DNA of 39,588 nucleotides from the IMG/VR virus record IMGVR_UViG_2534681990_000031. One strand, written 5' to 3'. This document shows, piece after piece, positions 1,718 through 33,968 of this stretch (within the stretch, counting starts at the first letter, position 1; each line of letters begins with the position of its first letter). Both the position numbers and the translations under genes were made by a program. The notes under the pieces were generated by a model that did not search any database, was not told the origin of the DNA, and saw only the letters and a list, made by a program, of their open reading frames with translations. Source of the DNA: a virus. Lineage: Duplodnaviria > Heunggongvirae > Uroviricota > Caudoviricetes.

Positions 1718-2455
1718 TCATTCACTCTCTTTCAAACCAGTTTTAACTGTTTGTGGTTTTGGGTAAGGCTGGACTTTGAATAGCTTTGTGTTGAGGCGTT
1801 TTCTGGCCCTCTTGTTCAGAAACCGGATGTAACGAAACTGTCGGAACTTATGCACACTGGCTCTGTCGATATTAGCCCTCAGATGTTCACCTCGTTGTCC
1901 GCCTCGTTTAATGGCATTCCTGCAAATCTCGTGATACCACTCGCCATCAAGTTCATAGAATGTTGATTCATGGCTGCCTACATAATCAAAATTGCTTGCC
2001 TGATACACGACACCAAGACAGCCACAACGCTCATCTGCAAACGACTGAACCCACTGTACCTGCGGATAAAGCTGCCTGATTAGCTTGAGCGCGTAACTGA
2101 TTGCCCTTGATTCGGAGTTTCTCGGCATACAGTCATGCATCCATAGCCGGTTAAGCTCCATATATTCTCGGTTCTGCGTACCCGTTACGACGCGTGCACC
2201 ACTGTTTGGGTTAAGGGCGTAACCCCATTGCATTACGCCAACAAGTTCCCGTTCTGAAAATATACCCAGATGAAGGTAGGAATTATTTACGAAACGGTGG
2301 CTGTAATGTTTATTGACGATAACCAGTCTGGCCAGCCAGCAACTTATTGTCTCAACCCGCAACTCACGGGAGCCATAACCAACGATATTGTCGTTATAGC
2401 GAATAAGTTCAGGCGTGCTGATGATACGGGATGTGACTTGCTTTCTGTTCCCCAC
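1718..2455 (-). CDS. mom: Mom-like DNA modification protein (anti-restriction adenine modification)
   Basis: Track ORF 245 aa; last gene before the phage right end; overlaps the 3' end of a Com-like zinc-finger ORF as in Mu; listed first codon is GTG so true start uncertain. Confidence 0.7.
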
Positions 2456-2609
2456 GACAGGATTTCCTTGTGTATGTGGGGTGCTCTGTGGCGCTCGGAG
2501 ATGTGATTTGATTGAGGGTTTTACTGCGCGGACATTTTACTTCCAGATAACTGAAACTGGCCCGTGCCAGTAGCTTATTGCAGTGTCGGCACCGTATGTT
2601 TCGATACAT
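2409..2609 (-). CDS. com: Com-like zinc-finger translational activator of mom
   Basis: Internal Met of track ORF 2409..2654 gives [30 protein letters not shown], resembling recalled Mu Com (IRCKNCNKLL...RCPRCK); overlaps mom start by ~47 bp. Confidence 0.65.
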
Positions 2610-2649
2610 GACCGCATAACCTCCTGCTTTGTTGTTGATGCCTTTCTCA

Positions 2650-2680
2650 TGCAATCGATCGACAAAAACGATCGATTCGA
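2650..2680 (-). promoter_or_regulatory. GATC/TCGATCGA cluster upstream of com-mom, candidate Dam-sensitive regulatory region
   Basis: Two GATC sites ~13 bp apart (about 2657 and 2670) within palindromic TCGATCGA/CGATCGAT about 50 bp upstream of com start; Mu mom promoter is regulated through clustered GATC sites. Confidence 0.4.
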
Positions 2681-2723
2681 TTTGTTTAATTGATACAACA
2701 AATAGATTGAAAAGTCATCAACA

Positions 2724-3188
2724 ATGATTCAGGGAGGTGATTATTTACTTAAAGAAAACGAAGAGTTAGGTGGTGAAAACGATCATAAAATGATCATTTT
2801 ATTGACTTTTTATACAGTGAAGGTAGGATCACGCGTACATGTAGTATGTTTCAAATCAACAGGATACTACATAAAAGTGAAACCCAGCATAGCTGGAACT
2901 ATGCTGGGTCAATCTGTAAAAACTTGCATCAATGCTTTACTTCGAGCTCGTGGCGTATCCTATGATATTCCCCGGTCTCCTGTAAAGCAGAGATGCATAA
3001 AAAGGAGATCTTTATCATGGATGAAAGAGCCTGTTTGCCCTGCCTGTAAGACTCCCTTACAGCTCATCTATCGCCGTTCTCGATCTCAAAATGGCAAGAC
3101 ATACAAACCCAAAAATGCTTCCTGTTTCAGGATGCTGATATGTCCTGCCTGTTCTCCCAGGAGGGAAAATACACAAAACGTGCATTAA
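2724..3188 (+). CDS. hypothetical Cys-rich protein; likely real product is the C-terminal ~55 aa (CPAC...CPAC) from an internal Met near 3021
   Basis: Track ORF 154 aa; C-terminal MKEPVCPACKTPLQ...CFRMLICPACS with AAGGAG-like RBS upstream of the internal ATG; convergent with minus-strand genes across a shared hairpin; N-terminal two thirds look non-protein-like. Confidence 0.25.
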   Translation: MIQGGDYLLKENEELGGENDHKMIILLTFYTVKVGSRVHVVCFKSTGYYIKVKPSIAGTMLGQSVKTCINALLRARGVSYDIPRSPVKQRCIKRRSLSWMKEPVCPACKTPLQLIYRRSRSQNGKTYKPKNASCFRMLICPACSPRRENTQNVH

Positions 3189-3197
3189 CAAATTCAC

Positions 3198-3217
3198 CCG
3201 GCAGGGAAACCTGCCGG
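3198..3217. terminator. perfect 8-bp stem / GAAA loop hairpin between convergent ORFs, candidate bidirectional terminator
   Basis: CCGGCAGG-GAAA-CCTGCCGG; ~10 bp downstream of plus ORF stop (3188) and minus ORF stop (3227); T-rich flank on both sides is only moderate. Confidence 0.45.
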
Positions 3218-3226
3218 TCGGTATTG

Positions 3227-3472
3227 TTACATCATAGTACCGTCAGTTCCGGGCTGAACCGGCTCTGGTTGCTCTACGGGTTGAGGATCATTTTCCGTGC
3301 TGTTTTCAGCCGGAGAACGGCCAACCATTCGGGCCAGCACTTCATCAACATATGCGTCGATTTGTGCCTCAAAATCCTTGCGAACCTGCGCCTTCAGCAC
3401 GCGGTTCACTTCTTCAGAATAAAGTGCCTGTTTGACAAGCTCTTCAGTAACCGTGCCTTTAATCTCTGGCAT
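3227..3472 (-). CDS. hypothetical small charged protein (81 aa), cargo island
   Basis: Track ORF; AAAAGGAGAATATTC-ATG RBS; protein-like composition (MPEIKGTVTEELVKQALYSEEVNRVLKAQVRKDFEAQIDAYVDEVLARMV...). Confidence 0.5.
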   Translation of the reverse strand: MPEIKGTVTEELVKQALYSEEVNRVLKAQVRKDFEAQIDAYVDEVLARMVGRSPAENSTENDPQPVEQPEPVQPGTDGTMM

Positions 3473-3507
3473 GAATATTCTCCTTTTGCAGGTATATTGC
3501 CCCGTTA

Positions 3508-3690
3508 TCAGAGCGGGGTCGGGTCGTTTGGGGATGACGGTGCCTGTGCTGTTTTACTGAGTTTTTCAGCTGCCGCATCATCAATTTTACGGCGAATATA
3601 ATTTCTGATGACCTTATAACCACCGCTCACCAGATATAACGCACTGACCACAGCGCAGAAATAAAGCAGCATTGTATGAACGAATGTCAT
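3508..3690 (-). CDS. hypothetical small membrane protein (60 aa, one N-terminal TM helix then basic tail)
   Basis: Track ORF MTFVHTMLLYFCAVVSALYLVSGGYKVIRNYIRRKIDD...; AAGG RBS; immediately upstream of the 81-aa ORF. Confidence 0.45.
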   Translation of the reverse strand: MTFVHTMLLYFCAVVSALYLVSGGYKVIRNYIRRKIDDAAAEKLSKTAQAPSSPNDPTPL

Positions 3691-3803
3691 ATAACCTTAC
3701 CTTTGATATTGACTACATAATTCGTTATCGGGTAAAAACATCGAAGCGACTGATAACCACTCCTTCGGGAGTATTTTTATTTTCCTTTATGGGTTAGGTA
3801 GCT

Positions 3804-3838
3804 CCCGCCAGCCATATCATGACCGGCGGGATTTTTTT
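3804..3838 (+). terminator. GC stem (CCCGCC...GGCGGG) followed by T7 run, plus-strand terminator-like element overlapping esterase stop codon
   Basis: 6-bp stem with 15-nt loop then ATTTTTTTAT; T run is on the plus strand only; the loop is long for an intrinsic terminator. Confidence 0.3.
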
Positions 3839-5876
3839 ATTCTGTTACCGCTTTTTTCACTTCCACCACAATGCTGTCAATCAGCACCGGGTAAGTTGCA
3901 TTTTTTGTGATATCCGTTACGCGGAGTTTGTCCACCGGGAAAGTTCCTACTGGTGACTGCGTCAGGGTAAACGCGGCACCATCCTGACCATCAATAACCG
4001 GAATAACCTGAAGGCTGTTATTTCCTGCAAAACGGAAGGCCAGCGTATGCCATTCATTATCAAATGCACCAAAGGTTCCCAGTTTCTGGTTATTTGTTGC
4101 CACTTTTGCATTGTGGTACATCACATTCAGGTCTTTTGCGTCTGTCTGGATGTAGAACGATGCCAGCAGATTATTCCCTGCATCCCCTGTCAGGGTGACA
4201 CCCTGCGGCAGAGAGGAAACCGGCCAGTAAAGCCCCATGACATACTGGTTTGCCACCAGGTCGCCAGGTACTTTAAAACGACAACTGATTAAACCACCAT
4301 TTTTCAGCAGTTCAGCACCAGTACCGGCATCATGATCCAGATACCAAGATGATTTACCTGTTTCCTTGGTCAGTTTCATTGCCTTACCACCTGTGCCTCC
4401 TGCATCACTGATAATTTCAGCTTTACCGCCAGCCGGCTCCCAGCCCTGGGCTTTCAGATTTCCTTCTGACTCACTGACACGATAAGACAGCAGTGTTGTG
4501 GTTACTGCTTCAGTTTCTGAAGGTGACGGCACTGGTGCTTCAGTTTCAGAAGATGGAACATCGGCTTTTACTGTGGTTCGCCCCGCATGAGTCAGAACTG
4601 CCGTGGCCAGACGGTCGGAAATAATCCCACGACGTGCCCATGAACTGAAATGGCTGGCCCGGTCCGCAGATGTCCAGGTGGCGGCACTGTTACGCCACGT
4701 TGAGCCGTAATAACCAATGGATTCAATATCCGGGTCTTCTGCCGGATTGTTGGTGGGTACATTCGCGTCATTTTCATCTGTCATTAATGGAACGAAATGA
4801 ATGTTTTTATCTGTTTTGTTTTTGTAGCCGCCATAGATTGCCTGGTATGCCGGTTCATTTTTCTGTTTCCAGAAATACGTGGTATCGCCACAAATCCACG
4901 GAACGCCAGCAGCACTGCCACCGGTACACTGTTCCGCCTGTTCAGCCAGGTCTGCGCGGAATTTTTCCACCATCGCCAGAAACAGCGCGGAATGCTCCGT
5001 CGGCTTCGCATCAATATCAAACTCGCCCTGCATCCACACCACAGCAAGCAGGCGGTTTTTCGGGTTCTTCGCCAGTGCCGCTTTTGTCCGGCTGATTAAG
5101 TCCTTATACAGCGGCTTATCCACACCCCAGCGGGCTGAGTCCTCTGAAGCACCCGTGCTGTCACTGTACGTGCCGTCAGCACCCGCCGTGAATGCAGAAC
5201 CACCACGGCAGCAGGGAACCAGCAGAATCCCCGCATCTGCCGGAATAAACGGCAGCAGTTTTTTGGCAATGTGAAGCCCCTGACCCACGGTGCCATATTG
5301 CCCTTTAGCCACATCCGCTTTCGGGTGATTTTTTCCACTCATATCCTGCACATCATGCAGACAGTGGTCGGCCAGAATGATGTCGTTATACTGACAGGCT
5401 TTACCTCCCGGCGTGACTGTACTGCGACGGGCTAACTGCATAATACGCGGTTCGGGGCGGTCATATGTCTCCGGCAGTGGCAGACCTTCACCGTAAGCCA
5501 TACCGTTTGACTGACCAGCAAGAACCACCACGTAATACCAGGAAGGGGAGCTGGAAGCAGTTTCATTTCCTGACGGACGGGTATGTGTTTCAGCATTATC
5601 CCAGTCTGACGGTTCAGCAGTACCGGCAACATCAGCACTTAACGGAATGACCGCACCAATACCCGCTCCGGTAATTTCCACACTCGGATCACCGGATACT
5701 GGCCTTACCCACAGGCAATCCCGTGTATTAAAACTGATGAGACAGTCAGCAAATGTCATTCCTCCTTTTGTTTCGGCCGGAGGAAAGGGAGCCTCAAGAA
5801 ATGCCGCTGTACCACCGGAAACTTTAACAGTAAAGTTTCCGGGCATTGATGATAGTTGAACCCATTTGGACGTCAT
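3837..5876 (-). CDS. putative sialate O-acetylesterase-type SGNH/SASA hydrolase with C-terminal beta-rich (lectin-like) domain; NanS-p-like prophage cargo
   Basis: Track ORF 679 aa; VVVLAGQSNGMAYGEG (GQSN block I) and LLAVVWMQGEFD motifs typical of the SASA esterase family; S/T/P-rich linker PSSETEAPVPSPSETEA; sits between gin and com where Mu has no gene. Confidence 0.6.
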   Translation of the reverse strand: MTSKWVQLSSMPGNFTVKVSGGTAAFLEAPFPPAETKGGMTFADCLISFNTRDCLWVRPVSGDPSVEITGAGIGAVIPLSADVAGTAEPSDWDNAETHTRPSGNETASSSPSWYYVVVLAGQSNGMAYGEGLPLPETYDRPEPRIMQLARRSTVTPGGKACQYNDIILADHCLHDVQDMSGKNHPKADVAKGQYGTVGQGLHIAKKLLPFIPADAGILLVPCCRGGSAFTAGADGTYSDSTGASEDSARWGVDKPLYKDLISRTKAALAKNPKNRLLAVVWMQGEFDIDAKPTEHSALFLAMVEKFRADLAEQAEQCTGGSAAGVPWICGDTTYFWKQKNEPAYQAIYGGYKNKTDKNIHFVPLMTDENDANVPTNNPAEDPDIESIGYYGSTWRNSAATWTSADRASHFSSWARRGIISDRLATAVLTHAGRTTVKADVPSSETEAPVPSPSETEAVTTTLLSYRVSESEGNLKAQGWEPAGGKAEIISDAGGTGGKAMKLTKETGKSSWYLDHDAGTGAELLKNGGLISCRFKVPGDLVANQYVMGLYWPVSSLPQGVTLTGDAGNNLLASFYIQTDAKDLNVMYHNAKVATNNQKLGTFGAFDNEWHTLAFRFAGNNSLQVIPVIDGQDGAAFTLTQSPVGTFPVDKLRVTDITKNATYPVLIDSIVVEVKKAVTE

Positions 5877-5975
5877 AATAATCAGCCTGTTCCTGAATAA
5901 ACTGAATTATCATATCCACAGACCGATAAACGCCATTTTGCGTTAATTCAGTAAAGGCCCAACAAAGGGAGCGTC

Positions 5976-6536
5976 TTATTTTTCCGAAACGCTCGCAGGA
6001 TAATAACGATAAAGGGTTGAAAGGCCGATATCAAAAATAAGTGCCACCTGTCTTCGACTGACACCCCCGGCCAGTAAACGCCCGACCTGCTCGTATTGTT
6101 CCTGCGTGAGACGACGGGGTCTGCCGCCGGTTCGTCCCCTTTCACGGGCAGCTGCAAGACCAGCCCGTGTCCGTTCGACAATTAATTCACGCTCCATTTC
6201 TGCCAGCGCACCCATTATGTGAAAAAAGAAGCGCCCCATGGGGGTTGACGTATCAATGTTGTCAGTAAGACTACGAAAATTTATCCCCTGTTGCTGTAAT
6301 TCATCTGTCAGCGCAACAAGGTGGCGCATACTGCGCCCCAGCCTGTCCAGTTTCCAGACCATCAGTGTGTCACCGGGTTTTAGTTTCTTCAGTGCCCGCT
6401 TCAGTCCCGGCCGCTGTGTCGTTTTACCACTCATTTTATCTTCAAAAATCTGCTCACATCCTGCACATTCCAGCGCATTTCTTTGTAAACCTGTGTTCTG
6501 GTCATTTGTTGATACGCGTATATAGCCAATCAGCAT
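5976..6536 (-). CDS. gin: Gin/Hin/Pin-family serine DNA invertase
   Basis: MLIGYIRVSTNDQNTGLQRNALECAGCEQIFEDK... closely resembles recalled Mu Gin including catalytic-Ser motif RVSTNDQ and C-terminal HTH. Confidence 0.9.
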   Translation of the reverse strand: MLIGYIRVSTNDQNTGLQRNALECAGCEQIFEDKMSGKTTQRPGLKRALKKLKPGDTLMVWKLDRLGRSMRHLVALTDELQQQGINFRSLTDNIDTSTPMGRFFFHIMGALAEMERELIVERTRAGLAAARERGRTGGRPRRLTQEQYEQVGRLLAGGVSRRQVALIFDIGLSTLYRYYPASVSEK

Positions 6537-6591
6537 GTATTTACCTTCCTTAAAAAGAGGTGGAAAGGCCTTTTAAAGCAGATATACGGCA

Positions 6592-6617
6592 TCCCTGAAA
6601 CCTCGGTTTACGGGATA
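6592..6617. other. gix-like recombination site (left crossover)
   Basis: AAACCTCGGTTTACGGGA resembles the recalled Mu gix core AAACCTCGGTTTACAGGAA; lies ~60 bp upstream of gin start; inverted-repeat homology with the tail-fibre gene begins here. Confidence 0.5.
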
Positions 6618-6961
6618 CTGTAAACAGGGCCGCGAATGCCCTGCCATCGAACGGAGCGGCTGTTGCAGCGAATAAACTCGCCACTCCAAGAAATATTAAT
6701 GGTGTCCCATTTGACGGAACGCAGGATATAAATATTACATCGGGGATGACGCAGTCTGTGGCTGACTCACGTTATGTTCAAAGCATTCGAAGAGGTTCAA
6801 GGTCAACGATTGGAATGCAATATAATATTTTTGAGGTTCCTGACGGATGCGTACTTACAGGGCTTGATGTCGCTGGTGATGGTAATGCAACGGTAACCGC
6901 ATATTATCGACCTGTTCAGTTTCTGATAGATGGTTCGTGGAAAACAGCTTCCAGCGCATAA
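6599..6961 (+). CDS. silent alternative tail-fibre C-terminal cassette (S'v-like), promoter-less and start-less in this orientation
   Basis: Open frame begins right after a TGA at the gix site; shares ~60 aa with the expressed fibre then a distinct 60-aa tip ...GCVLTGLDVAGDGNATVTAYYRPVQFLIDGSWKTASSA. Confidence 0.6.
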   Translation, partial: NLGLRDTVNRAANALPSNGAAVAANKLATPRNINGVPFDGTQDINITSGMTQSVADSRYVQSIRRGSRSTIGMQYNIFEVPDGCVLTGLDVAGDGNATVTAYYRPVQFLIDGSWKTASSA

Positions 6962-7040
6962 AAGTGCAGTAGTTCAAAAAACAGATTATCTGAATAAATA
7001 TATGATGATTTTGTCTTTTCAACAAAAACAAGGTGAAATA

Positions 7041-7562
7041 ATGGAGCTTATTAACGTAAAACGATATTACCCGGAACACAAACCCTATGGTGAGGATGTT
7101 CAGTATTTCCAGAGTGAGGACGGAAGGGATTTTTATGAATCTATCCCGCTTTTCACAAAGAAATACAAACTCTGTATTTCGCCTGTAACGGGTATTATCT
7201 GCTCTGTTGCTGAAGATGTCTCTGCTTTATATCCGGCAGGTTTTACTGTTGTTGAAGTGGACGAACTGCCGGAAGGTGTGAATATTGACGGTAACTGGCA
7301 GTTTTCTGATGGCCTGATATCAAAGGTGCCGGTAAACTGGAAGACGGTTGCTGAAAAGCGCCGCTCATCGCTGCTCCAGGAAGCCAACGAAACTGTGGAT
7401 GACTGGAAAACGGAATTAAAACTGGACATGATTAGCGATGAAAATAAATTACAGCTGACGCGCTGGATGGCGTATATCCGACAGCTTAAAGAAATGCACT
7501 TTAATGATATTGCCAGTGAGGGGCATTACCAGGCGATTCCCTGGCCGGAAAAACCGGAATAA
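7041..7562 (+). CDS. tail fibre assembly chaperone (Tfa/U'-like)
   Basis: MELINVKRYYPEHKPYGE...GFTVVEVDELPEGV...AIPWPEKPE has Tfa-family architecture; AAGGTG RBS 6 nt upstream; follows the silent tip cassette; track ORF starts earlier at 6930. Confidence 0.7.
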   Translation: MELINVKRYYPEHKPYGEDVQYFQSEDGRDFYESIPLFTKKYKLCISPVTGIICSVAEDVSALYPAGFTVVEVDELPEGVNIDGNWQFSDGLISKVPVNWKTVAEKRRSSLLQEANETVDDWKTELKLDMISDENKLQLTRWMAYIRQLKEMHFNDIASEGHYQAIPWPEKPE

Positions 7563-29796: not shown

Positions 29797-29834
29797 GTTA
29801 CGCTGTCTCATGATGTTCTCTGAGTCAGCGTAAC
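29797..29834 (-). promoter_or_regulatory. perfect 9-bp inverted repeat (GTTACGCTG / CAGCGTAAC, 20-bp spacer) abutting endolysin start codon
   Basis: Read directly in the mor/C-lys intergenic region; function unknown (activator site or 5'-UTR hairpin). Confidence 0.35.
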
Positions 29835-29866
29835 GGTGAAGGAAAGGCGGCAGGCTTTGCGGAATA

Positions 29867-30292
29867 TCAGAAAAGTGGCGGTTGTGTTCTTGCCAGATGC
29901 AGACGGCGCTGTTCACGTATGACGGTATAAATCTGGGTTTCTGACATCCGGTAATGGCGGCGAAGGGATTCAATTTTCTCGCCCCGGTCCCAGCGCGAAA
30001 ATATCTCATTGTTTCGCAGCTCGGCAAAGAGAGATTCCCCGACCGGCAGGTAATAACCCCGTCCGCCCATATAGGCTGCCTGAGCCGCAGCCACCTTGCG
30101 TGCCAGTTTGCCGGCCAGTACCGGCTCAATCCCCTGACGCTGAAGTTCTGCGCCGGTGACTTCAACCAGTTCTGACAGGGTCCGCGGCCAGTTCTTTTTG
30201 AGAACATCATCAGGGATGTCATCAAGGCGGTCGATAAGGGCGTGCAGTTGCTCACTGTCACCACCAAACATGCTCATCTGAGTTTCTGCCAT
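29867..30292 (-). CDS. Mor/C-family transcriptional activator
   Basis: 141 aa; C-terminal HTH ...RRHYRMSETQIYTVIREQRR resembles recalled Mu Mor C-terminus; only family member in window. Confidence 0.8.
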   Translation of the reverse strand: MAETQMSMFGGDSEQLHALIDRLDDIPDDVLKKNWPRTLSELVEVTGAELQRQGIEPVLAGKLARKVAAAQAAYMGGRGYYLPVGESLFAELRNNEIFSRWDRGEKIESLRRHYRMSETQIYTVIREQRRLHLARTQPPLF

Positions 30293-30320
30293 ATCAGCCT
30301 CCGGTTCTCGCGTTCCCGGT

Positions 30321-30355
30321 AAGTTTAAAATAAAAATCCCGCGTTGTGGCGGGAT
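30321..30355 (-). terminator. rho-independent terminator after gemA (stem ATCCCGC/GCGGGAT then TTTTATTTT on minus strand)
   Basis: 7-bp GC-rich stem, 6-nt loop, U-run on the coding (minus) strand 7 bp after gemA stop. Confidence 0.55.
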
Positions 30356-30361
30356 TTGGGG

Positions 30362-30871
30362 TTAACGGGGAAGTGATTTTTCATACTGCCTGCAAACGGC
30401 GTCATACCCCATCAGCGTGCGTTCGGGCATTCCCATCGCGGCCAGCATTTTGCGGCGGTGCCATCGCTTGAGACGCTCCAGCACATCTGAGGCCAGGGCG
30501 GGGTGTTGCTCCAGCCACTGCCAGTTTGCCACACCTTCGCCGCCGTTTTGCGCGGCCGTCTGCGATTTCACCCAGCGGTTAAGGGCGGTTTCCGCACCAT
30601 CAGAGATAAAGCCCTGCCGGTGCATCACCTTCCAGATGGCGCGAATTTTAGCGGTCACCGTACCCGGTTTTAAGGCCCGGTTAACCGGGTTCTGACGCAC
30701 TTTAAAACCGCGTTTTTTGAAAACATCCAGCACGCGGGATAACTCATCCGGTGACATATCCCGGCAGCTGGTTTTGCCGGTGACCGCCAGTAGTACGGAT
30801 GTGTAGGTTTCATCATCCAGGGCAAGCTCGCGTTTTGCCACATGAATGGCAGATATCAGTTTCCCTCTCAT
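30362..30871 (-). CDS. gemA: GemA-like protein (Mu gp16 family)
   Basis: 169 aa; MRGKLISAIHVAKRELALDDETYTSVLLAVTGKTSCRDMSPDEL matches recalled gp16/GemA N-terminal signature; synteny next to mor. Confidence 0.75.
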   Translation of the reverse strand: MRGKLISAIHVAKRELALDDETYTSVLLAVTGKTSCRDMSPDELSRVLDVFKKRGFKVRQNPVNRALKPGTVTAKIRAIWKVMHRQGFISDGAETALNRWVKSQTAAQNGGEGVANWQWLEQHPALASDVLERLKRWHRRKMLAAMGMPERTLMGYDAVCRQYEKSLPR

Positions 30872-31164
30872 GCTGTATCAACACTCCTGCGGATATGATA
30901 GGTATTATTTTCCCGATCGAGCTGAACCCGATACTCCGGAGGAATCACAAAAATATTAAAACCATCATCAGTTTTTATTCTTGAGTAGCATTCCCCCTTA
31001 TGATATCTGGCCAGTGCATTAATCAGAGAAGTCGCAGCCTGCCCAATCAGGTATTTTTTATGAAAAATACTGATAACTTTCCGGCACAGCCATCGTGTAA
31101 TGACGAATGCACCGAAAAAGGATGTGATATATAAATACCAGAACAACTGCGAACTACTGTCCAT
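30868..31164 (-). CDS. hypothetical membrane protein (98 aa, one N-terminal TM helix)
   Basis: Track ORF; LFWYLYITSFFGAFVITRWL TM segment; AT-rich codon usage; overlapping starts/stops with neighbours. Confidence 0.5.
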   Translation of the reverse strand: MDSSSQLFWYLYITSFFGAFVITRWLCRKVISIFHKKYLIGQAATSLINALARYHKGECYSRIKTDDGFNIFVIPPEYRVQLDRENNTYHIRRSVDTA

Positions 31165-31351
31165 TATCTTTCTCCTTATTCAGTCTTCTGCGGCATTCGG
31201 CACAGTCATCAGGGCTTTCAAATGTATCCGGCTCGCGATTATGAGCCAGATATAACCACCGTCCACATATACTGATATTTTCGCCTGTTTTAAAAAAATG
31301 ATGCTTCCTGGCCATTAGTGGCCGCGCCCATCCAGCGGGTAGACTATTCAT
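31154..31351 (-). CDS. hypothetical small Cys-containing protein (65 aa)
   Basis: Track ORF; C...CAEC arrangement (ICGRW...DDCAECRRRL); AT-rich. Confidence 0.45.
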   Translation of the reverse strand: MNSLPAGWARPLMARKHHFFKTGENISICGRWLYLAHNREPDTFESPDDCAECRRRLNKEKDNGQ

Positions 31352-31679
31352 TTGCTTTATCCTCCATGCTGGACAGAATCATATGTATTAATGTCGGGCG
31401 TGGAGATATACGCATTTCATTAAGCGTCTGAAGGGCAGCAACAGCTGCCTGTTTATCGGTGCCTTTGGCAATTTCAGCAAGAGAATGCACAATCCATAAT
31501 GGGCTTAACGCTACGGCTGAATGCAGAATCATGTCATCCATAATAATTTCTGGCATATCCCGTTTGTCACATTCTTTATCCATAAAAGAAACGATTTTTT
31601 CTGCATCTTCCGGTTTCATGCCTCCGGCGATGAGAATTTTACGATATTCATAAGACGATCTTAATTCAATACTCATCAT
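31344..31679 (-). CDS. hypothetical protein (111 aa)
   Basis: Track ORF; AT-rich block; translationally coupled with neighbours. Confidence 0.5.
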   Translation of the reverse strand: MMSIELRSSYEYRKILIAGGMKPEDAEKIVSFMDKECDKRDMPEIIMDDMILHSAVALSPLWIVHSLAEIAKGTDKQAAVAALQTLNEMRISPRPTLIHMILSSMEDKANE

Positions 31680-31691
31680 TCACCTGCCTGT

Positions 31692-32060
31692 TTAATCAGT
31701 TTCCAGTGCTTTGCTACGGGCAACAGCCTCACACTCAAAAAATACCGACTCCGGCACACGCTCCTTTAATTCACGAACAAGAAAATCATTAACGAGTTCA
31801 TGACGTCTTATATTTCTTTCCTTTTCCTCCTGGCGCAATACAGCAAGGCGGTATTCAACAGTCCGGCGTTGTTTCTGAAAGACAGCCAGTGCTTTTCTGG
31901 CAGAGTTACGCAATGTATCATCGCCACAGGGTTCGTATTCAAGCTGAAATTTAATCTCTTCAATGGTTTCTTTTATTTTTGCCAGCAAGCTAAGACAGTC
32001 GCTGATTGTCTTCAGTTTTTCATTATCAATATAACTTCTCACGCATTCACCTCCCGTCAT
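31692..32060 (-). CDS. hypothetical coiled-coil protein (~122 aa)
   Basis: Track ORF 31692..32084; start moved to internal ATG (MTGGECV) that abuts upstream stop. Confidence 0.45.
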   Translation of the reverse strand: MTGGECVRSYIDNEKLKTISDCLSLLAKIKETIEEIKFQLEYEPCGDDTLRNSARKALAVFQKQRRTVEYRLAVLRQEEKERNIRRHELVNDFLVRELKERVPESVFFECEAVARSKALETD

Positions 32061-32368
32061 TCCGGTAAAGCTGAAATATGGCACCAGTGCGTCACCTGTC
32101 CGTCCTCATCTTCAAGGCAGGCTCCGGTTTCTTCATCAATAAAAAAGCCTTCATACCCCATATGGCCGATGCGCAGTTCCTGTTGGTCACCATACTGAAC
32201 AATCAGCACGACAGCCTCCATATCAGGCGGGAAAGCATCATTCAGTGAATGCCAGGGATAACCGCGCAAATCCCCGAAATAAACACCGGTCAGCGTTCCG
32301 CCACAGACCGGCATTCCGACGGCACACACAAGGGGTTCATCTGATTCAACAAATAATGTCGTTATCAT
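32057..32368 (-). CDS. hypothetical strongly acidic protein (103 aa)
   Basis: Track ORF; ~20 Asp/Glu versus few basic residues; ATGA overlap with upstream gene. Confidence 0.5.
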   Translation of the reverse strand: MITTLFVESDEPLVCAVGMPVCGGTLTGVYFGDLRGYPWHSLNDAFPPDMEAVVLIVQYGDQQELRIGHMGYEGFFIDEETGACLEDEDGQVTHWCHISALPE

Positions 32369-32916
32369 GGCATTAATTCCCGTAATACAACATCTTCGGC
32401 AGTCCGACGACGGTGATAAATAAAACTCACCGTGCCCTCGGATAATTCAAATTTCTCGCCGATTTCCCTAAAGGTAAGACGCCGTGGTGATTCAGCATCC
32501 CGTAATTCACGAATAAGACGAACATCATCGTCAGGTATGCGGGTGAAGGGCAGCAACTCTCCGTATTTTTTCATGCTTACGCCAATATATCGCGCCCGAT
32601 TGTGGACAGAATCCCGGTCTCGCCCCAGATATTCTCCTATTTGCTTACCGGTCATTGTTCTGGCATTTTTTCGGATAAATTTATCTTCATCAGGTTTAAA
32701 TCTGAGGCGTTTGCATTTGAGCAACTCCGGGTAAGTACCGCGTAATAAAACAATCCGGTTATGTACACCCCAGAAACTTCTTTTTATCCTGACAGCAATA
32801 TCCTTAACCGGGGTGGATGGATAAAGCGCAATCAGCAGCGCATCTTCTTCAGGTGTCCATGCGCGAACATGAGCGGGTGCACGGCCTTTTCTCCCCATGG
32901 GTTGTAATATCATCAT
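32365..32916 (-). CDS. hypothetical DNA-binding protein with three HTH-like repeats
   Basis: 183 aa; three ~50-aa segments each ending in an HTH-like stretch (KDIAVRIKRSFWGVHNRI; GKQIGEYLGRDRDSVHNRARYIG; LTFREIGEKFELSEGTVSFIYHRRR). Confidence 0.5.
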   Translation of the reverse strand: MMILQPMGRKGRAPAHVRAWTPEEDALLIALYPSTPVKDIAVRIKRSFWGVHNRIVLLRGTYPELLKCKRLRFKPDEDKFIRKNARTMTGKQIGEYLGRDRDSVHNRARYIGVSMKKYGELLPFTRIPDDDVRLIRELRDAESPRRLTFREIGEKFELSEGTVSFIYHRRRTAEDVVLRELMP

Positions 32917-32919
32917 GCA

Positions 32920-33435
32920 TCACCCCCTGACTCGCTTTTCAGCAGCATAAAACTCATCAGACAGAATTTCGGTCATTTTCTGATTTGCGGGTTTTACGCC
33001 GCACTCAAGGTAAATCACATCGTCAACGCAGAACCACTTCACAGGGCCAAACATGATTGCCGAGAAATCAATACCCAGCCAGAACAACAGTGCATCGGTT
33101 CTGGCATACGTGACGGGCGAATATTCACGCCACAGACTGTTAAGTTCGTCAGAGGCAACGCGCAGGGCTTTGGGAATACGTGATGTGCGCGGTGTGCAGC
33201 TCCAGCCATTCGACGCAGTCGGTTTTCGCCATAAGTCGCGATGAAAAGGATATTTGTCATCCATAAAGCGCAGCCCTTTAAAACAAAAGCCACTGATACC
33301 GGATACAAATACCGACCGGCACGCAACATTCAGCACGGCCTCAAGGCGTTTTGCCTCATCCTTAACTTTCTGGCAGTCCTGCTGATATTTTTGCCACGCG
33401 GCCAGCGCGGAAGGGTTTGATGTTTTAAAGAACAT
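32920..33435 (-). CDS. hypothetical protein (171 aa)
   Basis: Track ORF in early operon, translationally coupled. Confidence 0.5.
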   Translation of the reverse strand: MFFKTSNPSALAAWQKYQQDCQKVKDEAKRLEAVLNVACRSVFVSGISGFCFKGLRFMDDKYPFHRDLWRKPTASNGWSCTPRTSRIPKALRVASDELNSLWREYSPVTYARTDALLFWLGIDFSAIMFGPVKWFCVDDVIYLECGVKPANQKMTEILSDEFYAAEKRVRG

Positions 33436-33968
33436 TACGCCACCTCCGCAGATATCCCGGCAGGCGCGGCCGTCCGGTCAACAATCAGGTAACGCAGAAC
33501 GCGCGAGGTGATATTCCAGCCGCTTAAACCGCAGATAATGACACCCAGGCGTATGTCGATATACGCCATCACAAACTGGGGCACGCCTTCTTTCATGGCC
33601 TGCTCATCAACTTCAGCCACCACATAAACGGTTTCACAGGTCAGAACGCCCTGAGCAAATTCCCACGCCATTGACGGAATATCATGCCCCTCAATCCACG
33701 GCAGGGATTTTCTGAAGCTGCACCACTGAACATCATCAGCCGCACCTTCCTGGCTGCATTTGCGACGAACCGGCTGCACCGGGCGGGGACGCGGAATATC
33801 ATAAAAACCGTTACATTCCGTCAGCACCCCGGCATCGACCGCATCACGCAGAAAATAAACCATCGAGGATGGCGGCATATTCATTTTTTCAGCCAGAATG
33901 CCGCAGGTCAGACGCCCGTAAATACTCAGCCAGTTTTTAACCCCTTCAAGCACTTTTGCACCAATCAT
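33435..33968 (-). CDS. hypothetical protein (177 aa)
   Basis: Track ORF in early operon. Confidence 0.5.
   Translation of the reverse strand: MIGAKVLEGVKNWLSIYGRLTCGILAEKMNMPPSSMVYFLRDAVDAGVLTECNGFYDIPRPRPVQPVRRKCSQEGAADDVQWCSFRKSLPWIEGHDIPSMAWEFAQGVLTCETVYVVAEVDEQAMKEGVPQFVMAYIDIRLGVIICGLSGWNITSRVLRYLIVDRTAAPAGISAEVA

Follow-up and report, generated by a model that had tools for sequence, protein, structure and literature searches.

The window analysed here is the whole 39,588-nucleotide (nt) stretch of IMG/VR virus record IMGVR_UViG_2534681990_000031, and the subject is a block of four closely packed minus-strand open reading frames (ORFs) at 30868-32084, here called genes A, B, C and D. 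The whole stretch is an Sp18-type Mu-like prophage of Escherichia coli, and positions 30300-32900 are 100% identical in DNA sequence to many E. coli O157 and other Shiga toxin-producing E. coli (STEC) chromosomes. A preliminary description, made by eye, had placed four small genes at these coordinates in the early region of a transposable phage; all four ORFs are present on the minus strand. Along that strand the gene order is transposase, AAA ATPase, small ORFs and Gam, followed further on by F, E, D, C, B, A, GemA and Mor, and every gene from the transposase through GemA lies on it. Beyond GemA the annotation continues with a Mor-family activator, lysis and head genes, which is the Mu gene order (A, B, gam, gemA, mor, lysis, head), and a Pfam scan of the window proteins gave GemA and Gp11_C matches. 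The block is thus situated between the transposition genes and gam on one side and gemA and mor on the other, on the early-operon strand, as is the semi-essential early (SEE) region of Mu.

The four-gene block and its flanks

The features of the block and its surroundings are listed by position, with protein lengths in amino acids (aa).

30334-30357, minus strand: terminator-like hairpin from a consensus scan, a 9-bp stem followed by a T run, directly after gemA
30362-30871, minus strand: gemA (gp16 family), the conserved downstream flank; Pfam GemA, E = 2e-30
30868-31164, minus strand: gene A, 98 aa; ORF and RefSeq coding sequence WP_000378480
31154-31351, minus strand: gene B, 65 aa, basic; ORF and RefSeq
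31344-31679, minus strand: gene C, 111 aa as an ORF, 110 aa in RefSeq
31692-32042, minus strand: gene D, 116 aa; the maximal ORF, 31692-32084, has 130 aa
32057-32368, minus strand: gene E, 103 aa, DUF551-like (UniRef), phrog_6925
32365-32916, minus strand: gene F, a 183-aa helix-turn-helix (HTH) DNA-binding protein, the conserved upstream flank

The genes are joined by short overlaps. The stop of A and the start of GemA share 4 nt (ATGA), and the overlaps at B/A and C/B measure 11 nt and 8 nt, respectively. The tight overlap first attributed to the block holds at these junctions but not between D and C, which are separated by a 12-nt spacer. Gene D had been given about 122 aa; that ORF exists and its ATG start overlaps the stop of gene E (ATGA), but RefSeq and the alignment of homologues favour the GTG at 32042 (116 aa), which is preceded by a GGGAGGTGA Shine-Dalgarno site. 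The alternative upstream starts are an ATG at 32060 and a GTG at 32084. A Shine-Dalgarno site is found at each start of A-D.

Scans of the region found 6 promoter-like sites where 7.8 are expected by chance, so that these are not in excess, and the 9 weak terminator-like matches inside the block (5.9 expected) likewise do not rise above chance. The strongest-looking terminator-like site of the scan was the hairpin after gemA (AAATCCCGC-CACAAC-GCGGGATTT-TTATTTT), a putative end of the early transcript. An Rfam scan of 29800-33500 found nothing. Given the lack of internal signals and the coupled junctions, we infer, from this anatomy and from what is established for Mu, that the block is the distal part of the early operon. 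A search for direct or inverted repeats bounding the block found none, and a site-specific insertion or a transposon origin was rejected on this ground.

A 132-aa antisense ORF (31800-32198, plus strand) overlaps D and E. It bears no sign of being a gene, and its open frame is probably incidental to the AT-rich coding region on the other strand.

A variable slot between gene F and gemA

The region was compared by tblastn mapping in 39 loci spanning it, comprising 6 RefSeq variants, 32 IMG/VR contigs and the window. Gene F and GemA flank the interval in all 39, and between them at least eight cargo architectures were found. Across loci the flank proteins are 84-100% identical, in contrast to the unrelated cargo. 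The architectures are given below in transcription order, where A' is a second allele of A (51% identical), x61 a 61-aa peptide with two transmembrane (TM) segments, zn46 a 46-aa Cys-rich protein and p100 a 100-aa protein.

Architecture 1: E-D-C-B-A, the window
Architecture 2: E-D-C-B-A'
Architecture 3: x61-C-B-A', Sakai Sp18
Architecture 4: x61-C-B-A
Architecture 5: E-D-C' plus a DUF2513 gene on the opposite strand
Architecture 6: E-A' only, a 629-bp slot
Architecture 7: E-zn46-p100, the L018 type
Architecture 8: E, then an IS5-family insertion sequence (IS) element

DNA alignments located the breakpoints at or near gene junctions, at 32359 (F/E), 32051 (E/D), 31691 (D/C) and 31167 (B/A), with further ones at 31432, inside gene C, and at 30847, eight codons into gemA. 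The separately exchanged modules are E, D, C-B and A/A'. In Sakai-type prophages, E and D are together replaced by the two-TM peptide; in comparison with L018-type prophages, window positions 32051..30847 (D-C-B-A) are swapped whole for a Mu gp13/gp14-type cassette. Sibling prophages of the L018 and L005 types lack all of A-D. The block had been taken for a four-gene insert, and its bounds do match this one real swap, but E, D, C-B and A move independently. The expectation that it would prove variable was borne out: it differs among close relatives and is not conserved across Mu-like phages. The interval beside gemA has the anatomy of an accessory slot, a point on which we have very little doubt.

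Insertion sequences have also entered the slot. In locus L128 (strain 95NR1), and also in strain 95JB1, the 3' end of E is interrupted by IS1203, and locus L006 (strain S1-CAM-01-A) has ISKpn26 in the interval from E to gemA. The locus tolerates such disruption in the prophage state, and the insertions should be polar on downstream early genes.

Among the cargo genes E is the most persistent, being found in architectures 1, 2, 5, 6, 7 and 8. It is not one of the four genes first described, yet belongs to the same variable slot. Its product is very acidic (isoelectric point 4.05, 18 acidic and 2 basic residues), a charge that makes a DNA-mimic or anti-restriction role a speculative lead. Gene F matches phrog_323 (transcriptional regulator, D5-like; E = 6e-58), with weak Sigma70_r4/HTH Pfam hits, and occurs in every locus reaching its position as two allele classes, 72-74% and 87-99% identical to the window copy. 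No match to F was found in Mu or SfMu, and none to E in Mu; to judge by these comparisons, F and E are an addition specific to the Sp18-type lineage.

The gemA type of the window was found in 230 of 5,426 complete E. coli genomes (~4%), and at least 80% of the block was present in 117 of these 230, or about half. No relatives came up when genome contigs were scanned with GemA.

Between gemA and the Mor-family gene, a second variable slot is present in some relatives (L005, 1745-2533; also L022, L034 and L042). The interval in L005 contains a 78-aa gene and an opposite-strand 140-aa gene, and the downstream distance from gemA to the start of the Mor gene is ~1.5 kb in L034, compared with ~70 bp in the window.

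Base composition of the slot

In line with the preliminary description, the guanine-cytosine (GC) content is not uniform along the window. The block has a GC content of 0.4215, against a mean of 0.536 (standard deviation 0.047) for same-size windows across the 39.6 kb; just 0.1% of these reach so low a value, and the lowest of all is the one starting at 30833. GC at third codon positions is 0.36-0.41 in A-D, compared with 0.63 in GemA and 0.56 in Mor. The contrast with the flanks that the preliminary description had reported is sharp on the GemA side only. Upstream the recovery is gradual, with gene E at 0.50, gene F at 0.46 and the next gene at 0.50, so that the AT-rich zone reaches ~32900.

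Low GC turned out not to be a mark of this particular cargo. Every non-IS variant of the slot has a GC content of 0.40-0.475, with GemA at about 0.51-0.58, and in phage Mu the slot has 0.465 and gemA 0.553. AT-richness intrinsic to the B and D families was ruled out, as their homologues elsewhere follow the local GC content, from 0.40 to 0.73. Since all non-IS cargoes are AT-rich and the B and D homologues follow their surroundings, the low GC would belong to the gene pool of the slot, that is, to shared, horizontally circulating genes and not to one foreign insertion.

The four cargo proteins

Genes A-D are real protein-coding genes under purifying selection. The median pairwise ratio of nonsynonymous to synonymous substitution rates (dN/dS) rises from 0.11 in B through 0.14 in D and 0.15 in C to 0.17 in A, and is 0.23 in GemA. 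All four are labelled hypothetical in every public source. They had been left without a family assignment, which stands for the curated collections scanned (see below), but each falls into an existing PHROG family of proteins of unknown function, with the following profile hidden Markov model matches.

Gene A: phrog_17269, E = 1e-68
Gene B: phrog_2358, E = 4e-34, covering only positions 4-67 of the 146-position profile
Gene C: phrog_1988, E = 6e-45
Gene D: phrog_6158, E = 4e-56

Protein A, encoded by the last cargo gene, has a probable N-terminal membrane anchor, in line with the single TM segment first ascribed to it, and a C-terminal domain of ~65 aa. Because positive charges lie on the C-terminal side of the anchor, this domain is predicted to be cytoplasmic. 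A is a near-orphan: a search of 1.84 billion representatives yielded its own 50%-identity cluster and two distant small homologues, which share the TM segment and a RIK..DG.N.FV..P.Y.V motif, and homologue searches restrict it to the Sp18-type lineage. Between A and A' the first ~30 residues, including the TM segment, are conserved and the C-terminal domain has diverged (dN 0.37, dS saturated). In a test for positive selection between the two, dN/dS was well below 1; together with the saturated dS, this suggests that A and A' are old alleles and not products of recent diversifying selection.

Protein B, first described as Cys-containing, has three Cys residues, and its invariant positions are H17, H18, C29, C50 and C53. 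These invariant His and Cys residues make it a putative small zinc-binding domain, possibly a mini-domain resembling a zinc ribbon or treble clef. Homologues with 61-73% identity are located in nin-like regions of lambdoid prophages, downstream of replication genes and with DUF1627, DUF551 and Ead/Ea22-like genes as neighbours; relatives also occur in other phages, including high-GC phages. One high-GC contig has a possible fusion of B to a ribbon-helix-helix (RHH) domain (E = 8e-4, below the Pfam cut-off). A suspected resemblance of B to DUF3039 was not confirmed. Some copies of B are frameshifted or truncated to 56-57 aa with an unrelated C-terminal half (P0015-P0017; L021, 5575-5715), and B is apparently decaying in some lineages.

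Protein C is acidic and predicted to be helical, with a core of the form LIAGG...LSP.WI...DK.AAV.AL followed by one of several alternative C-terminal tails. Its only distant relative is SfMu_14, 34-36% identical, found in the same slot of SfMu and Yersinia Mu-like phages. Protein D gave a confident AlphaFold2 (AF2) model of three helices forming a long hairpin (predicted local distance difference test, pLDDT, 85.8), the structural neighbours of which are generic coiled coils only. In phage Fraca, as in IMG/VR contigs, homologues of D are located directly upstream of xis/int.

Function of the cargo

We consider it likely that A-D are the current cargo of a recombination-shuffled accessory slot between gene F and gemA, and that they serve as early effectors. 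According to this model, the slot would occupy the distal end of the early operon, the position of Mu gp13, gp14 and gp15, and would be maintained by homologous recombination in the conserved flanks, with exchange at gene junctions keeping the genes whole. It would draw on a pool of small delayed-early genes common to enterobacterial temperate phages. Transcription of A-D would begin at the early promoter, and only once the prophage is induced or a cell infected; their translation would be coupled as far as gemA, and phage growth would not require them. Each protein singly could be a small binder of a component of the host or of a competitor, with a role in exclusion, counter-defence or host takeover. 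A would work at the inner membrane, B would use a mini-domain stabilised by zinc, which may touch nucleic acid or a protein that handles DNA, and the helical modules C and D would mediate protein-protein interactions. That the four belong to the class of non-essential early effectors is somewhat favoured by the evidence. A specifically anti-defence role is possible but doubtful; it is suggested because accessory regions are enriched for such genes and because the Mu early gene E6/Mup07 is gnarl2.

Several points weigh against this interpretation. Expression from the early promoter would follow from gene order and established knowledge of Mu, and the case for dispensability is built on sibling prophages and IS-disrupted copies, which are known as prophages only. 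A more housekeeping role for the phage would also agree with the purifying selection and with the finding of the block in some half of the lineage. Pfam, NCBIfam and PADLOC scans gave no significant match for A-D, nor for their distant relatives; with PADLOC, A-D had chance-level hits only (E >= 0.0096), no defence or toxin-antitoxin model and no toxin or antitoxin domain being among them. No relative of A-D was found in the PDB by sequence or profile, and fold searches with A-D gave no specific match. The AF2 model of B is of moderate quality, 4 of 5 models having a pLDDT of 60 or less.

The whole-cassette swap against L018-type prophages, the tight coupling and similar GC content of A-D, and the finding that B never occurs without C among the sampled Mu-like loci could all be read as signs of one co-functional system, namely a toxin-antitoxin, exclusion or anti-defence operon of mutually needed genes acquired in a single horizontal event. 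We judge this very unlikely: Sakai-type loci carry C-B-A or C-B-A' without D, other loci have E-A' without D, C and B or D-C' without B and A, and in phages that are not Mu-like, B is found in the absence of C, and D in the absence of the other three. Neither PADLOC hits nor bounding repeats were found. A different possibility is that the genes are morons for lysogenic conversion or superinfection exclusion, with A and the 61-aa two-TM peptide blocking incoming phage at the inner membrane. A moron is defined by its own promoter and terminator, which allow expression from a repressed prophage, and AT-rich composition is typical of morons, as in HK97 and lambda. The AT-richness of the block, the membrane anchor of A/A' and its dimorphism in near-identical contexts, and the small two-TM peptide as the alternative cargo of Sakai-type prophages agree with such a role, and the opposite-strand DUF2513 gene of some slot variants must have its own promoter. 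A-D themselves lie on the early-operon strand with overlapping stops and starts, and promoter and terminator signals among them do not exceed chance; the moron model for A-D was rejected on these grounds. The Mu early operon is repressed in lysogens, which further argues against expression in the prophage. We therefore regard this explanation as unlikely, while noting that it overlaps the accessory-effector interpretation, as early expression is compatible with an exclusion function during lytic growth.

A function intrinsic to the phage, such as modulation of transposition or replication, or control of the early-to-middle switch, would make A-D non-orthologous replacements of Mu gp13-gp15. 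They occupy exactly that position beside gemA under purifying selection comparable to that of core genes; in addition, the possible B-RHH fusion, at its score below the Pfam cut-off, hints at a nucleic-acid-related activity, and B homologues adjoin replication genes in lambdoid prophages. We give this explanation little credence, however, since the transposase, gam and gemA backbone is shared by siblings whose cargo is unrelated or consists of E-A' alone. Mu gp13-15 have no known function either, and the SEE region is considered semi-essential (PMC8705779). That A-D are chance, non-coding reading frames in an AT-rich spacer is scarcely credible. The hypothetical labels in all sources and the lack of a curated family would suit it, but it is effectively refuted by the substitution pattern (dN/dS 0.11-0.17 over many alleles), to which can be added the Shine-Dalgarno site at each start, homologous families with conserved motifs in unrelated phages and the confident model of D.

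If A-D are early effectors of an accessory slot, A/A' or B could inhibit a host defence or exclude competing phages, and the two A alleles could be matched to alternative host targets. That one or more of the four would found a new class of early-expressed phage effector is a tentative idea, on balance improbable, for which A/A' and B are the best candidates. The slot is a natural and clearly bounded exchanger of cassettes, and its prophage lineage is present in ~4% of complete E. coli genomes, including many of O157 and other STEC strains. It provides a short list of candidates in one backbone, namely A/A', B, C, D, E, the 61-aa two-TM peptide, the Mu gp13/gp14 pair and DUF2513. Should any cargo gene prove to be a true anti-defence or exclusion factor, it would offer a first functional handle on Mu gp13-gp15 and on the widespread ORFs of the lambdoid nin region.

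Other features of the prophage

Only one gene of the Mor/C family was detected in the window (29867-30292, minus strand), with 39% identity to Mu C and 27% to Mu Mor. It comes after the strong terminator-like hairpin 3' of gemA, an arrangement that suggests an early-to-late cascade simpler than that of Mu. The remaining low-GC patches of the window lie at the Mom end of the prophage (1718-7562):

1718-2455: Mom
2724-3601, plus strand: two unassigned ORFs
3837-5876: 679-aa SASA esterase/DUF6645 protein
5976-6536: Gin-like invertase
6930-7562: tail-fibre assembly gene

The 679-aa protein is presumably of the NanS-p type found as cargo of enterohaemorrhagic E. coli prophages.

In the literature, Sp18 is named in a 2026 PLoS Pathogens paper only for prophage excision in a mutant (PMC13502914), and neither Sakai locus tags nor peptide strings were found in literature text.

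Comparison with known systems

The HK97 and lambda morons resemble A-D in being AT-rich extra genes inserted between conserved genes and variable among relatives. They differ in having their own promoter and terminator, which were looked for and not found for A-D; the opposite-strand DUF2513 gene is the only slot variant that looks moron-like. The lambdoid nin-like regions and the small ORFs near ea and xis contain homologues of B and D, so that the slot cargo comes from the delayed-early accessory pool of these regions. They belong to another phage type with another regulatory circuit, and their neighbours are uncharacterised, so that no function can be transferred from them.

Among Mu-like phages, SfMu (ORF14) and the Yersinia phages vB_YpM_5 and vB_YpM_6 carry, upstream of gemA in the same slot, a homologue of C, the only gene that they share with the window block. 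SfMu ORF14 has been reported as a protein of unknown function, unique to SfMu and lacking homologues in Mu and D108 (PMC4406740). The same paper states that Mu orf12 has no SfMu homologue (PMC4406740). Positions 2778-3279 of SfMu (KP010268, locus L008) are unannotated and are 54% identical, in two high-scoring segment pairs, to the window 171-aa protein, the homologue of Mup12; they may represent a frameshifted or missed gene.

The closest counterpart of the slot is found in Mu itself. The two genes upstream of F are the counterparts of Mu gp11 and gp12, and Mup12 directly precedes Mup13. In architecture 7, zn46 matches Mup13 at 92% identity and p100 matches Mup14 at 49%; the presence of these counterparts in the slot indicates that D-C-B-A sits where Mu has gp13-gp15 (Mup13-Mup15, formerly E14/E15), the last small early genes directly upstream of gemA. 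Like A-D, Mu gp13-gp15 are small, AT-rich relative to gemA and of unknown function. The two sets have no detectable sequence similarity, the window GemA is 43% identical to Mu GemA, and in the window lineage the gp12 homologue is separated from the slot by two additional genes, F and E. The SEE region of Mu is described as poorly conserved and semi-essential, encoding small uncharacterised proteins (PMC8705779).

Accessory regions with conserved flanks around variable, horizontally exchanged small genes, as in the window slot, were described by Silas et al., who found that genes of such regions often antagonise host defences or modify the host (bioRxiv 10.1101/2023.04.06.535777). The Mu early gene E6/Mup07 is among them as the host-modifying accessory gene gnarl2 (bioRxiv 10.1101/2023.04.06.535777). 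Prophages were excluded from the input set of that screen, and its main text contains no sequence from the window slot. The locus described here shows the testable features of both a phage accessory region and the Mu SEE region, and it is an ordinary feature of Mu-like phages; what it contributes is a mapped case of a phenomenon already known, not a new phenomenon.

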